Source: an uncultured Chloroflexia bacterium
GTDB lineage: Bacteria; Chloroflexota; Limnocylindria; Limnocylindrales; CSP1-4
Direction: 5' to 3'
DNA length: 64,000 nucleotides
Assembly: GCA_963734535.1 (NCBI GenBank)
Contig: CAVTHS010000011.1
Coordinates: 71,807 to 135,806 of the forward strand
Within the stretch, counting starts at the first letter, position 1; the number at the start of each line of letters is the position of its first letter. The position numbers and the translations under genes were made by a program. The notes below the pieces were generated by a model, which saw only the letters and a program-made list of their open reading frames with translations, ran no database searches and was not told the origin of the DNA. Shown here piece by piece: positions 1-8,470 of the stretch.

Positions 1-2645
<2,645 letters not shown>

Positions 2646-2911: not shown

Positions 2912-4321
2912 GTGGCGTTCCGAACTTCGCATCGCTCGCGCGGACGCATTGTGTTCGGCGTCTTCGCGGTCGTCACCCTTTGGCTGGCATCATTCGCCGG
3001 TCCCGCCGGTGCGAACGCGATGTCCATCGGGCCCGCGGGCACGCCGGTCGTGTCCGCAACCGATGCCGTGTCGAGTGTCGACATCACGCTGATGAAGTAC
3101 ACCTGCCCGACGTACAGCGACGTTCCAGCCAACAGGAACCCAGGAACGTCCGACGCGACGGGCGGGCATGACAGCCAGCTCGACGTCAGCTATCAGACGA
3201 GCCGCGTCGATCCGGCAACCGACGTGCCTTCCACGTGCCATCCGCAACCCGGCGCGCAATTCATCCTGACCGCTGGCTCGCCTGGCGTCGACATTGCCAC
3301 GTGGACCACGGGTGTCGATGGCTCGGTCGTCGCCACCCTGGCGGGCGCGACCGCGACCCTCGTCACGAACAGGAACTGGGACACGGGGGTCGTCGTGACC
3401 GAACGGGTCCAGACGGACCACGGCTTCGGCGCCCTTCGATGCTACAGAGACATCAACAACGGTGACAATCTCGAGGGCATCTTCGGTTGGAACGGCATCG
3501 ATCTGCTCTTCTGCATCGCATATGACGTCCCGACTGCCCCGAGCCCGTCGCCCAGCCCGAGCCCGTCGCCCAGCCCGAGCCCGTCGCCCAGCCCGAGCCC
3601 GTCGCCCAGCCCGAGCCCGTCGCCCAGCCCGAGCCCGTCGCCCAGCCCGAGCCCGTCGCCCAGCCCGAGCCCGTCGCCCAGCCCGAGCCCGTCGCCGCAG
3701 CCCGAGCCCGTCGCCCAGCCCGAGCCCGTCGCCCAGCCCGAGCCCGTCGCCCAGCCCGAGCCCGTCGCCCAGCCCGAGCCCGTCGCCCAGCCCGAGCCCG
3801 TCGCCCAGCCCGAGCCCGTCGCCCAGCCCGAGCCCGTCGCCCAGCCCGAGCCCGTCGCCCAGCCCGAGCCCGTCGCCCAGCCCGAGCCCGTCGCCCAGCC
3901 CGAGCCCGTCGCCCAGCCCGAGCCCGTCGCCCAGCCCGAGCCCGTCGCCCAGCCCGAGCCCGTCGCCCAGCCCGAGCCCGTCGCCCAGCCCGAGCCCGTC
4001 GCCCAGCCCGAGCCCGTCGCCCAGCCCGAGCCCGTCGCCCAGCCCGAGCCCGTCGCCCAGCCCGAGCCCGTCGCCCAGCCCGAGCCCGTCGCCCAGCCCG
4101 AGCCCGTCGCCCAGCCCGAGCCCGTCGCCCAGCCCGAGCCCGTCGCCCAGCCCGAGCCCGTCGCCCAGCCCGAGCGTCCCTGGCGCCGGCTCCGGAGGGG
4201 GCCCGAGCACCAATGGCTCCCCTGGTGCCGATCCTGCACTCGCGGACGGGGGCTCCGGGCTCGACTCCGGGCCCGGCCGAGCCACCCCGGGCAACCCCGG
4301 ACGGTCGGGCGCCGCCGCTGA
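2912..4321 (+). CDS. secreted repeat protein: signal peptide, ~170-aa Cys-containing globular domain, (SP)n then (QPEPVA)27; this is the open frame as assembled
   Basis: The signal-like N-terminus is [25 protein letters not shown]. The globular part contains 4 Cys (YTCPTY, STCHP, LRCYRD, LFCIAY). From 3537 the frame runs through the 18-bp tandem array. See the finding on the extra G at 3697. Confidence 0.6.
3537..4174. repeat. tandem repeat, 18-bp unit GAGCCCGTCGCCCAGCCC x ~35, essentially perfect
   Basis: Read directly from the sequence. The only deviation found is GTCGCCGCAGCCC at 3691-3703, an extra G near 3697. All six reading frames are open across the array. Confidence 0.97.
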
Positions 4322-5114
4322 CGCCTCAGCGCCGCTATCGGGCGCACCAGAATCCCGGGCTCCCGCGAGAGGCGGTGCGGTACCGGGCGACCCGATCGGC
4401 TCTGCCGTCAGCGACGCGCGCGCAAACGGCACGGGCGACGACTCGCTCGCCGCGTTGATGGCTGGCATCCCGAGCCCCTTCGGGCATGATCCCTCTGGCA
4501 AGCTGCCGCGGCTCGCGACGCTCGCGACGCTCCTGTCCACGACGACCACCCTCGCGCTCGCCTTCCTGCTCTTCGGCAAGAAGCGCCGCGACGAGGCTCC
4601 GACCGAGTCGGACGCGGACCTCGCTGCTGCGGCGGCCTCTCCCTATGCCATGCTGGGATCCCAGCTCGCCCCGGCGTATGCGGGGGTGGACCCGGGGACG
4701 GGCGGAACGGACGTCAACCTGCCGCGCTGGCGTCGCCCATCGCTGCTTGCTGCGAGAATGTCGGATCCCGTCCGCAACGGTGTCGAGCACGTCAACCTGA
4801 CGTTCGGCTTCCAGGGAGGGGCGACGGCCTGTGGCGAGCGCCAGGTCGTCCGATACCGGCTGGTTCGCCTCCTCGACCGTCCCGACGAGATGCTTGGCCA
4901 GGCCGTGGACTCGCTGGACGAAGGGGACGAGGTGGAGATCCTCGAACAACGCGGCACATACCGCCGCGTGGCGACGCCCGACGGGCGCCAGGGATGGCTC
5001 CACCGGATGACCCTCGGCGAGACGGTGAGCGATGCACCGCCGCCAACAAGCGAATCGGACGATCCTGCTGACGACGTTCTGTCGGCCTACCTGGCGGCGC
5101 GGGCGCGGGCCTGA
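4175..5114 (+). CDS. C-terminal segment (frame 0) of the repeat protein: Gly/Pro-rich spacer, TM anchor, cytoplasmic SH3-like domain; no independent start apparent
   Basis: The frame of ORF 3462..5114 reads (SP)n through the array. It then gives [31 protein letters not shown] (a TM helix plus positive stop-transfer) and [57 protein letters not shown] (bacterial SH3-like). The SP reading is continuous with ORF 2912 if one base at 3697 is removed. Confidence 0.55.
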
Positions 5115-5191: not shown

Positions 5192-8100
5192 ATGGGGAAG
5201 GAGCAGGTGCCCGCACGGTTCATCGGGCGGCTGCGCGAGCTGGACCAGCTCGACGCGGCCGTCACGGGTGTGGCCGACGGACGCGGCGGCACGATCCTGT
5301 TGGCCGGCTCGAGCGGGATGGGCGCGAGCCGGCTGTTGGACGAGCTCGAGTCACGCATCGTCGCGACGCCCCGAAGGCCGATCACCCTCCTTCGCAGCGA
5401 CCGGCTGCCGGCCTGGCGCGGTGCGCCGTACCGGCCCGTTCGGTATCGCCATCGAGGGACACCTGCGCACGCTTTCCCCATCGCGGGTCGCCGCGCTCGT
5501 CGGGCCCGCCGCCGAGCTCCTGGGCCCGCTGTTCCAGGGCGTCCTCTGGGCGCCGGTGGTCGATCCCGCACGGCCGGCTGGCCCGGAGCGGCGAACAGAG
5601 CGGACGCTCGAGGCGCTGCGTGGCCTCCTCGGCCGCCTTGCCGCCGACCGCCCGGTCGTCCTGTTCCTCGAGGACCTGCACGAGATCGATGCCGCGACGC
5701 GCGACCTCGTGGCGTTCCTTGCCCGAACCGCGGGGCACCTCCCGCTCCTGCTCGTCGGGACGTACCAACCCGACGCCCTGACTCGCACGCATCCGTTCCG
5801 GGCCACCCTGGAGGCGATCGAGAAGCGGGCCGAGCGGCGTCGGTCGAATCGACCTTGGCCCGTTGAGCCAGCCCGACATCGGGGCGCTCATCGAGGTCCA
5901 CGAGGGCGAGCGACCCTCCGCGCCGCTCCTGCTGCTCGTCACCGAGCGGTCGCGGGGGAACCCGCTGGTCGTCGAGGAGGTGCTCGACGCCCGACGGGAG
6001 CTGACCGGCGCGTCGCTCACAGCCCCGCTCGCGCAGCTCATCCTCGGCCGCGTTGGGCACCGGTCCGCCGACTGCCGCGGCGTCCTGCGCGCCCTCGCCC
6101 TCGCGGAGGGCCCGCTTGCGCTCGACGAGCTCGCCACGGTGGCTGCCGCGTACCGAGGGCCAGGGCCTGGCCCCGCGTCGTCCTCCGGACCGCGTTCGGG
6201 CGTGGCACGCGCATGCTCGACGGCGATCTTGCCGCCGGGCTCCAGGAGGCGCTTCGCGAGAGCGGTTCGCGGTGTCGGCTGACGCGGCCGCGAGATGGGT
6301 CCGCGGCGGCAGACGTACGGGATCCGTGCGCCATCGAGCAGGTCGCGGCCGCCCTGGCCGCGGACCTGCTTCCGGACGAGCGCCGGCGTATGCATGCCGC
6401 GCGTCGCCACCGCGCTCGACAGCCACCCGTCGGAGGCCGCGCGCCACTGGCTGCGAGCCTACGAGCCCGCGCGTGCGCGGGCGGCGGCGCTCCGGGCGGC
6501 CGCGGCCGAGGAGACTGCCGGCGCCGGTGCGGACGCCCTCGCGCACCTGGAGCTCGCGATCGAGCTGGCCGTCCCGGCGACGCCGGGACCTGATCAGTCC
6601 GCCGCCGCCATCCGGACGTCGCGCTTCTTCGCCGGGCAGCCGAGGCTGCGCTCGTCGCGGGCGACCCGGGCCGCGCAGCCGCGTTCGCGGAATCGGCCCT
6701 GGCTCCCGGGATCCCGTCCGGCGACCGCGTAGTCGGCTGCGGCGGCCTGGGACCGCCTCGGCGTCTTCCGCTGGGAGAGCGGCGACCGCGAGGGCGCGCT
6801 CGCTGCGCACGACCGCGCCCTCGAGATGCTGCCGCGGACGGAGACGCTGGAGCGCGCGCGGGTTCTGGCGACCGTGGCCCAGATCCGGATGCTGGAGGGT
6901 TCGTTCAGCGAGGCCGAGCACCTGGCGCGGAGGCGATTCGCGCTCGCCGAATCCAGCGGGCCCGGGCGGCGAGGCCTGGCTCGGGCACGCGCTCTGCACG
7001 TTGGGCGTCGTGGACGGCTGGCTGGGTCGGCCGGAGTCCGCCGGTCGCGCGCCTGGAGCGGGCACTTGCGATCGCCGTCCGCCTCGACCGGCTCGACGAC
7101 GCGTTCCGGGCGCGCGCCAACCTCGCCACGATCCTGGACCTCGAGGGCGCCGCGAGGAGGCGGTGCGAGTCTCGGAAGCGGGGATCGCTGCTGCGGAGGC
7201 GGCCGGCCTGGAGGCCGTGCACGGCAACCGCCTGCGGGGCGGCGCCGTCGATTCGCTCTTCCCGCTCGGGCGCTGGCGGAGGCGCGCGCGCTCGTCGAGG
7301 CATGCCCTCGCGTGGGCGCCGGCAGGGATCGCATTCGTGCATGCCGCGGTCGGGTTCATCACCGTGGAGACCGAGCTCTCCGCCGGGGAGGAGGCCAGCC
7401 GGACGCTTGGCCGCCTGCTCGTGGAGCTGGAGCTCATCGCGGACACGCAGTACGCCGTCCCCACCTACCAGGCCGCGGCCTCGCTTGCGCTCTGGCGGGG
7501 CGACCCCGCGGATGCCCGCCGGGTGGCCGATGCCGCGTGGGATCGCGTCCGGACCACGGAGGACTGGGCGCTCGCGGCGCCCGCCGGCCGGCACCGCTGC
7601 TCGCGGTGGCCGCCGACGTGGCGGAGGCCGCGCGCGACCGACGCGACCTCGCGACGCTGGCCGCGATCCGCGCCCGGGCGGAGGCCGTCCTCGGCGAGGC
7701 GCAGCGGATGGTGGAGGCGTCCGGGGTTGCGGCGCGACGTCTTCGCGCGCCGCGAGGTGGACGCCGAGCTCGCGACCGCCCGGGCGCACCTCCTGCGGGT
7801 GATCGGGCGCGACGATCCGGCGGCCTGGTCCGCCGTCGCGGAGCGTGTGGGTCACGCTCCGTCGCCCGTACGACACCGCCCGTGCCCGCCGTCGGCAGGC
7901 GGCGGCGATCCTCGCCGCGGGGGCGCCGACGGGCGAGCGACGCGGGCGGCGCGACGAGGCGCGCGAGCCGCTGCTGGAGGCCGCGCCGGATCGCGGCAGG
8001 CCTCCCGGCCCTGCCGCTCCTGCAGGCCGTCGCGGACCTCGCCGGACGCGCCCGGATCGTCCTGCCTGCGGCCGCGCTCGAGATCCTCGCGGCTCCCAGC

Positions 8101-8470
8101 CCGGCCGGACCCGGAGTCCGCCGCGAGGCTCGCCCCGGCGGACGCCCGTCACGGCCGCGCCCGGACTGGAGCGCGCTCCGCGGCGGAGCGGCGGACCGCG
8201 GAGACGTTCGGCCTGAGCGCCCGCGAGCGAGGCGTGCTGGCCGAGGTCGTGGCCGGCCGGACGAACCGCGAGATCGGCGAGCGCCTCTACATCAGCGAGA
8301 AGACGGTCGGCGTCCACGTCGGGAACATCCTCGCCAAGCTCGGGGTCTCCGGCCGGGTCGAGGCGGCGACGGTCGCGCTTCGGCTGGGGCTCGTGGATGA
8401 TCTGGCGGCGGACGCGAAGAGACCCGGACCGACGGGTCCGGGTCTCGTTCGGCGAGGCCGGGGCGCCTGA
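5192..8470 (+). pseudogene. large ATP-dependent LuxR-family regulator (LAL/MalT-like: AAA/P-loop, TPR-like helical repeats, C-terminal LuxR HTH), many +1 frame changes as assembled
   Basis: The N-terminus is FIGRLRELDQLDAAVTGVADGRGGTILLAGSSGMGASRLLDEL (P-loop). A Walker-B-like segment follows: RPVVLFLEDLHEIDAATRDLVAFLAR ... LLLVGTYQPD. Next come SRGNPLVVEEVLDA and helical-repeat segments spread over all three plus frames. The C-terminus is LSARERGVLAEVVAGRTNREIGERLYISEKTVGVHVGNILAKLGVSGRVEAA (LuxR/GerE HTH), ending at 8470. The frame order is 2 to 0 to 1 to 2 and so on. Confidence 0.8.

Follow-up and report, generated by a model that had tools for sequence, protein, structure and literature searches.

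Does a single additional G that shifts the reading frame within a long Ser-Pro-encoding repeat belong to the organism, or was it introduced when the genome was assembled? The question is raised by a surface-protein gene in the window (the whole stretch of 64,000 nucleotides analysed here, from contig CAVTHS010000011.1 of assembly GCA_963734535.1), in which the base lies between the part encoding an N-terminal domain and the part encoding a transmembrane helix and C-terminal tail. A preliminary description of the locus had proposed that the base switches the encoded repeat from (SP)n to (QPEPVA)n and orphans the tail, and had named a plain consensus error as the contrary outcome. Both readings are considered below, together with the possibilities that the frame is recoded during translation and that the array is itself partly a product of assembly.

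The repeat array and its reading frames

An exact search located GAGCCCGTCGCCCAGCCC 34 times without mismatch, spaced 18 bp apart, in the window region 3541–4171, the sole irregular interval being that from 3667 to 3704 (37 bp), which contains a single 19-bp unit (GAGCCCGTCGCC-G-CAGCCC, 3685–3703) with the additional G at position 3697. The array of about 35 units with one extra G that had been described previously is therefore present as stated, in the form of 34 exact units and one 19-bp unit. TRF delimits the array at 3538–4175 (period 18, 35.4 copies, 99% matches, score 1267), and a genome-wide repeat scan ranks it as the largest short-period repeat of the 3.2-Mb genome, such that it is not a chance feature. 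The features of the locus and of its two neighbours are collected in Table 1.

Table 1. Features of the locus and of the neighbouring genes, in window coordinates.
Feature	Position	Strand	Basis
metY (O-acetylhomoserine sulfhydrylase), with two +1 insertions (C 1067, G 1299)	239..1524	-	G023 alignment, L061 orthologue
GTG start and Sec-type signal peptide / N-terminal hydrophobic helix	2912..3016	+	translation; AF2 helix at residues 18-28
Extracellular N-domain, ~170 aa, beta-sandwich	3017..3540	+	15 homologues, conservation, AF2, Foldseek
Tandem array, 34 exact 18-bp units and one 19-bp unit; (Ser-Pro)n in the frame common to both flanking domains	3541..4171	+	exact search, TRF
Extra G, GTCGCC[G]CAGCCC; lone +1 insertion outside a homopolymer, probably a consensus error	3697..3697	+	exact search
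Out-of-frame continuation of ORF 2912, QPEPVA x26 then Arg-rich, TGA at 4319-4321	3698..4321	+	translation
Gly/Pro/Ala-rich extracellular spacer, probably disordered	4172..4511	+	translation, tail frame
Transmembrane helix, followed by KKRRDE	4512..4577	+	AF2 helix at residues 20-51 of P0135; nearly invariant among homologues
Juxtamembrane segment, with invariant motif ending in (K/M)SDP	4578..4838	+	invariant columns P94-R105, 27 homologues
SH3b-like beta-barrel	4839..5027	+	AF2 pLDDT ~94, residues 133-195 of P0135; Foldseek
Acidic spacer, conserved terminal helix and stop codon	5028..5114	+	translation, conservation, AF2
LuxR-family AAA_16/TPR/GerE regulator, with at least three +1 shifts	5192..8467	+	AAA_16 model, tblastn

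No stop codon occurs within the array in any of the six frames. The open reading frame that begins at 2912 (2912–4321, 469 aa) encodes the signal peptide, the N-domain, (SP)26 and 26 units of QPEPVA before it enters Arg-rich, out-of-frame text; the 27 such units counted previously are reduced to 26 on translation, with the 27th shortened to QPE. A look-up of this 469-aa product as an exact protein returned no record. A second frame is open from 3462 to 5114 and encodes (SP)79, a Gly-rich stretch, the transmembrane helix and the tail, and translation is in agreement with the earlier statement that the Ser-Pro reading passes without a stop into a membrane anchor and an SH3-like tail that ends at 5114. 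The Ser-Pro frame is continuous on either side of G 3697, and the effect of the base is to displace this reading from the frame of ORF 2912 into the frame of the tail. With the additional base removed, the interval 2912–5111 amounts to exactly 733 codons.

A tandem repeat in a surface-protein gene combined with a change of frame is also seen in SSR phase variation, of which the CTCTT repeats of the Neisseria opa contingency loci are an example. Such a mechanism is excluded in principle at this locus, as the 18-bp unit is a multiple of 3 and the shift results from a single inserted base that is not part of the repeat, so that, unlike at the SSR contingency loci, the frame stays the same however many units are gained or lost. 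That a change in unit number is unable to restore the frame had been pointed out in the preliminary description, and the unit length leaves this conclusion in place.

The shifted frame (CAG CCC GAG CCC GTC GCC) does contain two CCC-G sites per unit, at each of which re-pairing of a Pro tRNA in the +1 frame is conceivable. One may on this basis envisage recoding, whether programmed or leaky, in which a +1 slip at one of the ~52 CCC-G contexts returns ribosomes to the Ser-Pro frame, with anchored and unanchored forms of the protein as products. The argument for recoding is one of sequence context, and position 3697 has neither a dedicated slippery site nor an element that would stimulate slippage.

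Domains of the protein and its single-frame relatives

The N-terminus, including the signal peptide region, is conserved in the orthologues P0003–P0005, and the signal peptide would be cleaved after ANA. Pfam and NCBIfam profiles gave no match to the N-terminal 209 aa. Among the homologues the N-domain contains four invariant Cys residues (C65, C109, C177 and C201) and the conserved motifs CPxY..PAN..DATGGH and FGALRCYxDxNNGDNLE. Structure prediction for the N-terminal ~170 aa, as had been recommended, yielded a confident beta-sandwich (core pLDDT 87–97) when an AF2 model was built with the homologue alignment. The best PDB matches of this model in Foldseek are SpaA pilin, TIE, CnaB2 and SdrD-B domains (E 4e-5 to 5e-3), and the match to the CnaB/pilin folds has an E-value of 4e-5 and a probability of 1.0 but a TM-score of only ~0.36 at 13% identity. 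In its beta-sandwich fold class and its surface-protein setting the N-domain may be akin to the stalk domains of CnaB/SpaA-type pilins and adhesins (PDB 5f44, 6fwv, 8bdw), although a sequence relationship is not detectable and the TM-scores are modest. Two further differences are that the N-domain has two probable disulfides, whereas isopeptide bonds are typical of CnaB domains, and that its protein is anchored through a transmembrane helix and has no LPXTG motif, unlike the CnaB/SpaA-type pilin and adhesin proteins.

Beyond the array, the Gly/Pro/Ala-rich spacer has a counterpart in P0003–P0005 and in P0018–P0022. The KKRRDE sequence that follows the transmembrane helix suggests a positive-inside signal, which would place the C-terminal tail in the cytoplasm, and the juxtamembrane segment, modelled with low pLDDT, is probably flexible. 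The preliminary description had called the tail SH3-like, and the AF2 model and Foldseek bear this out: the modelled barrel matches the SH3b domain of dipeptidyl-peptidase VI (4r0k; rmsd 1.5 Å over 61 residues, 26% identity) as well as the CPF_0587 SH3 domain and an endolysin SH3_3 domain, with E-values of 2e-4 to 1e-3 and rmsd values of 1.1–1.5 Å for SH3b domains overall. The C-terminal barrel, as modelled, is a five-stranded SH3b fold. At the level of sequence profiles, Pfam SH3_3 (PF08239) gives E 0.005 and 17.5 bits on the tail, under the 27-bit cut-off that several of the tail homologues pass, and TIGR04211 (SH3_and_anchor) gives 24.3 against a 65-bit cut-off and covers model positions 20–61 only. 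As in the SH3_and_anchor model, an SH3 domain is here paired with a membrane anchor. Most SH3b domains are extracellular and bind the cell wall, whereas the domain of the present protein is predicted to be cytoplasmic.

The comparison with related genomes that had been called for beforehand identified intact orthologues in which these parts reside in a single open reading frame. In G013, which shares its genus with the genome under study, the N-domain and the tail lie within one open frame of 837 codons, with TPTPTPAPTPTPDP and TPTPGA arrays between them. The orthologues P0003 (629 aa), P0004 (636 aa) and P0005 (644 aa), from short-read metagenomes, are each a single ORF with the order signal peptide, four-Cys N-domain, PT/PS linker, Gly-rich stretch, transmembrane helix and SH3b-like tail. 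The single protein of about 730 aa that had been predicted on deletion of one base corresponds to the 733 codons obtained here, and its architecture is that of the one ORF in G013 and in P0003–P0005. A QPEPVA-type linker is absent from all relatives compared, the linkers of which are all of PT/PS type, and on sequence comparison the Ser-Pro frame is the frame consistent with the protein family. Neither half of the gene has decayed: over its full length the N-domain is 63–65% and the tail 74–85% identical to homologues (63–65% and 74–76%, respectively, for P0003–P0005, and 85% for the tail of P0018).

Programmed frameshifting was rejected on the grounds that in the orthologues a single frame spans N-domain and tail, and the frameshift is not conserved. 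The frame breaks known from other relatives (see below) are situated at different places and in different units, and the genome-wide error pattern accounts for the G with no special mechanism. Taken together, recoding at this locus is extremely improbable.

One-base insertions around the locus and across the genome

The error content of the assembly was gauged locally against G023:C196, a contig of a fragmented and presumably short-read MAG that can be aligned, with 92–93% nucleotide identity, over the 17 kb immediately upstream. Within these 17 kb the genome under study (G000) contains 28 lone one-base extras with respect to G023. They are mostly G or C in a non-homopolymer context with identical flanks, e.g. 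GGTCGGGACG[C]ATCGACTGGC and CGCCCTCGAT[G]CGCGGCGACC, and the context of G 3697, CCGTCGCC[G]CAGCCC, is of the same event type. Frames were mapped with tblastn, since a comparison of coding-score ORF lengths between G000 and G023 was too noisy in this DNA of 72% GC. ORFs that are intact in G023 switch frame in G000 exactly at the extras, with 91–98% amino-acid identity on both sides.

Both neighbours of the surface-protein gene are affected. The metY gene is spread across three frames in G000, the pieces of which are 89–96% identical to the intact 437-aa orthologue of L061, a syntenic short-read scaffold. In the LuxR-family regulator, breaks are located near 5343–5458, at ~5824 and at ~6932–6963; positions 1–51 of the AAA_16 model are matched in one frame and positions 80–167 in the next, and tblastn with the intact 1087-aa L061 orthologue runs through frames 2, 3, 1 and 2. 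The local density is therefore at least one break per 2 kb, and one break in a gene of 2.2 kb is what the error model predicts.

On the scale of the genome, an HMM of GC3 periodicity was used to detect same-strand frame switches at which both frames are open over the junction. It returned 377 candidates in G000, or 251 by a stricter rule, which are to be read as a rough count only: 400 kb of G007, a clean, high-quality congener that served as the control, yields about one-third of the G000 candidate density, and the HMM also under-calls, with two breaks found in a matched 17 kb against at least nine by homology. Breaks of the +1 type, i.e. one-base insertions, constitute 78–82% of the G000 candidates and all eight of those that the HMM places in the window. 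Four of the HMM candidates were checked with curated full-length models, and all four proved to be one gene cut between consecutive model positions: rpoC (TIGR02386 positions 227|229, at a C-run), hisS (TIGR00442 positions 44|47), a CopA-type ATPase (324|329) and a glucan phosphorylase (220|233). The MAG has a single copy each of rpoC and hisS. Counting splits by homology provides a cleaner measure than the HMM. By this measure the G000 orthologues of 15 of 91 long G007 genes (16%) are split between frames, at 19 breaks in all, against 3 of 98 genes (3%) that are split in G007 in the reciprocal test.

Indels are the dominant error of long-read sequencing and create false pseudogenes in MAGs, the effect being worst at low coverage (PMC8103633), and residual indel errors in long-read MAGs are also the subject of the paper describing the Kastor tool (PMC12007338). 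The breaks observed in G000 have the same traits, in that lone indels split conserved and even essential genes, occur in clusters and are absent from short-read relatives, whereas the halves that flank them remain 89–98% identical to orthologues. They differ in kind from the homopolymer deletions that are usually quoted as the error of Nanopore data, as lone insertions outside homopolymers prevail in G000 and homopolymer deletions are a minority.

Ser-Pro-type arrays elsewhere in G000 are not spared, and two subtilase genes are frame-broken within theirs. The linker arrays of the long-contig relatives G005, G021, G010 and P0007 also hold many frame changes. The sources of these four appear to be long-read MAGs too, and recurrent breaks of this sort could alternatively be real mutational hot spots.

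The linker breaks in these relatives are one of three observations on which a real and very recent frameshift may be argued for, whether fixed or a strain variant. The second is that the G is present in the sole assembly available, a search of metagenome and GTDB contigs for both versions of the array, with the additional base and lacking it, having found no independent copy of the locus; the search returned two matches, both in unrelated genes with the same SPSPSP codon unit (a PASTA-domain gene, L039, and a gene of a Solirubrobacteraceae MAG, L040). The third is that the array is open in all frames, such that translation would go on for 208 codons. Under this reading the gene would either have become a pseudogene only very recently or give rise to a secreted, unanchored N-domain with a (SP)26-(QPEPVA)26 tail, the transmembrane helix and SH3 domain being unexpressed. 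Against a real mutation stand the fit of the break to the class and density of the assembly's error profile, in which essential genes and both neighbours are broken likewise, a downstream tail that shows no decay in comparison with P0018, and the intact short-read orthologues. We consider a real frameshift unlikely. A more elaborate version, in which the G is real, the linker is frame-tolerant, the ectodomain is shed with the hybrid (SP)26-(QPEPVA)26 tail and occasional +1 slips at CCC-G restore some anchored protein, is very unlikely; if both the G and the slippage were true, the locus would exemplify switching between shed and anchored states of a surface protein by means other than the customary repeats of phase variation.

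The extra G at 3697 is very probably an assembly consensus error and not a mutation in the organism, since essential genes, both neighbours and other Ser-Pro arrays are broken in the same manner and the short-read orthologues are intact. This is a statistical verdict for a single base, and it is the assembly-wide error pattern that points to the plain consensus error named in the preliminary description. In an assembly where rpoC, hisS and both neighbours are broken by one-base shifts, a true change of the encoded repeat from (SP)n to (QPEPVA)n with an orphaned tail is not supported, and the organism most likely does not translate the QPEPVA/Arg-rich stretch. On the preferred reading, G 3697 would be a one-base insertion error in a long-read metagenome consensus, and the locus would comprise one gene, read in the cell as a single 733-codon ORF in the Ser-Pro frame. 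Its product, in a soil bacterium of Limnocylindria-like (Chloroflexota) affinity, would be a surface protein anchored in the membrane in type I orientation and composed of a signal peptide, a disulfide-bonded CnaB/SpaA-like beta-sandwich ectodomain, a (Ser-Pro)n stalk of ~210 aa, a Gly-rich spacer, a transmembrane helix and a cytoplasmic SH3b-like tail. The gene is probably intact and ordinary.

The biological weight of the frame switch is small, as it is very probably an artefact. The locus serves rather as a warning that G000 contains hundreds of one-base frame breaks, mostly of the +1 type (rpoC, hisS, metY and the LuxR regulator among the genes affected), and that calls of pseudogenes, split genes or recoding on this genome need read-level support.

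Linker turnover and the gene family

The linker unit is different in each relative (TPTPTPAPTPTPDP, TPTPGA, TPTPTPKP and SAAPTPSPSPSP), and the linkers of P0003 and P0004 are set apart by a single unit of 7 aa. Such differences in unit and copy number imply that the linkers turn over fast by gain and loss of units. The stalk is in this respect comparable to the Pro/Thr/Ser-rich tandem stalks of bacterial secreted and surface proteins, which likewise place a low-complexity, Pro-rich spacer between ectodomain and membrane anchor and change unit and copy number quickly among relatives. The present array stands out from these by its unusual length and the homogeneity of its DNA, with 35 units free of substitutions in the assembly.

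This homogeneity may be asked to bear on the array itself, as the true copy number or unit variation could differ from 35 identical units through collapse, expansion or homogenisation during polishing. The many consensus errors of the assembly are in line with this, as are the less perfect arrays of the relatives (66–96% matches) and the failure of short-read assembly at the orthologous array in L061 (SAAPTPSPSPSP, 36 bp), where a 100-N gap is left. The errors seen against G023 are, however, one-base indels and not substitutions or large rearrangements; an array of 638 bp is easily spanned by long reads; and the one-unit difference between P0003 and P0004 illustrates the natural variation of such arrays. 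An array that is partly an assembly product is on balance unlikely. The most plausible source of the homogeneity is replication slippage or unequal recombination, by which the array would recently have expanded and been homogenised, a process that would be typical of this gene family, and the homogeneous 35-unit Ser-Pro array is a manifestation of the rapid linker turnover within it. The array and the gene are real and ordinary features: the gene adds a member to the surface proteins with Pro-rich linkers, and its array is unusually homogeneous.

For the C-terminal module more than 210 homologues were identified, some of them, from Candidatus Limnocylindrales and Dormibacteraeota MAGs, with the annotation 'SH3 domain-containing protein', and paralogues with the same tail but other ectodomains are found in G003, G001, G019 and G008 and as P0022. 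The locus therewith brings to attention an uncharacterised yet widespread family of Limnocylindria/Dormibacteraeota membrane proteins, in which interchangeable ectodomains are combined with a conserved module of transmembrane helix, invariant motif and SH3b domain (predicted to be cytoplasmic). Genes of this family often adjoin a LuxR/AAA regulator.

Frame breaks in G000 and same-genus relatives

One-base frame shifts split the single-copy genes rpoC and hisS in the MAG under study (G000), the rpoC break site being a run of six C (CTCCCCCCGAG), and such splits affect every pseudogene or gene-content analysis of this MAG. The surface-protein gene stands in a conserved gene order (metY, a 396-aa gene, the surface protein and a LuxR regulator), and its neighbours metY and the regulator, which carry +1 shifts in the window (see table), are both unbroken in the syntenic short-read metagenome scaffold L061. 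Frame is also lost in two subtilase genes with Ser-Pro (SP)-type linkers; in the second of these, the SP frame gives way to Arg-rich text and then returns to SP, with a 768-aa ORF kept open. Relatives from the same genus show a similar split: at L027 (G005:C19), L028 (G021:C10) and L029 (G010:C8), the orthologue or paralogue has its N-domain in one frame and its tail in another, with many frame changes in the PT array of G021 and further breaks in the middle DUF11-like domain of G005. The same assembly problem seems to be common to these three MAGs.

Locations of the features discussed (G000:C2, C3 and C7, contigs of the MAG; L039 and L040, loci in unrelated bacteria)
Feature	Location	Strand	Remark
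metY	window 239-1524	-	2 +1 shifts
4-Cys N-domain	window 3017-3540		
C-terminal module	window 4512-5114		
LuxR/AAA_16/TPR/GerE regulator	window 5192-8467	+	at least 3 +1 shifts
rpoC	G000:C2:179888		outside window; split site
hisS	G000:C3:218187		outside window; split site
Subtilase (S8), SP-type tandem linker	G000:C7:65000-66900, array 65742-66052		outside window; frame broken within array
Second subtilase (S8), SP-type tandem linker	G000:C7:85300-88000, array 86781-87056		outside window; frame broken within array
L039	Ga0335397_10093867:9-62		identical 18-bp SPSPSP unit
L040	CAWCSS010000009.1 (Solirubrobacteraceae MAG MFD05442.bin.2.218)		identical 18-bp SPSPSP unit

The linker array and the N-domain

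The 18-bp unit of the linker is also present at L039 and L040, in genes that are unrelated to this one and belong to unrelated high-GC bacteria; in one of them it precedes a PASTA-like domain. Convergence on the same codons for (Ser-Pro)n, rather than homology, seems to account for the match. In L061 (ENA scaffold WOOD18-1_SAMN07125060_METAG-scaffold_8001), a 100-N gap (3806-3905) stands in place of the orthologous array (36-bp unit, SAAPTPSPSPSP), and the gene caller called the tail alone (P0018, 318 aa); the short database homologues that consist of the tail only are therefore likely to be truncated gene calls. The 4-Cys beta-sandwich N-domain, for which there is no Pfam model, is also found within other large surface proteins (P0008, P0010, P0015-P0017), where it is accompanied by PF19407, PF19403, PF18676/PF24346 and DUF11 (PF01345).

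The C-terminal TM/SH3b module

The C-terminal module comprises a TM helix, an invariant motif, an SH3b barrel and a terminal AYLAARARA helix. More than 210 proteins from Limnocylindria/Dormibacteraeota-type MAGs, including the homologues P0018-P0134, form a family defined by this module, in which different ectodomains are joined to the module, and which appears to be uncharacterised. A LuxR/AAA regulator adjoins the module gene in at least three genomes (G000, the relative G008 and L061), which hints at a signalling role for the family.
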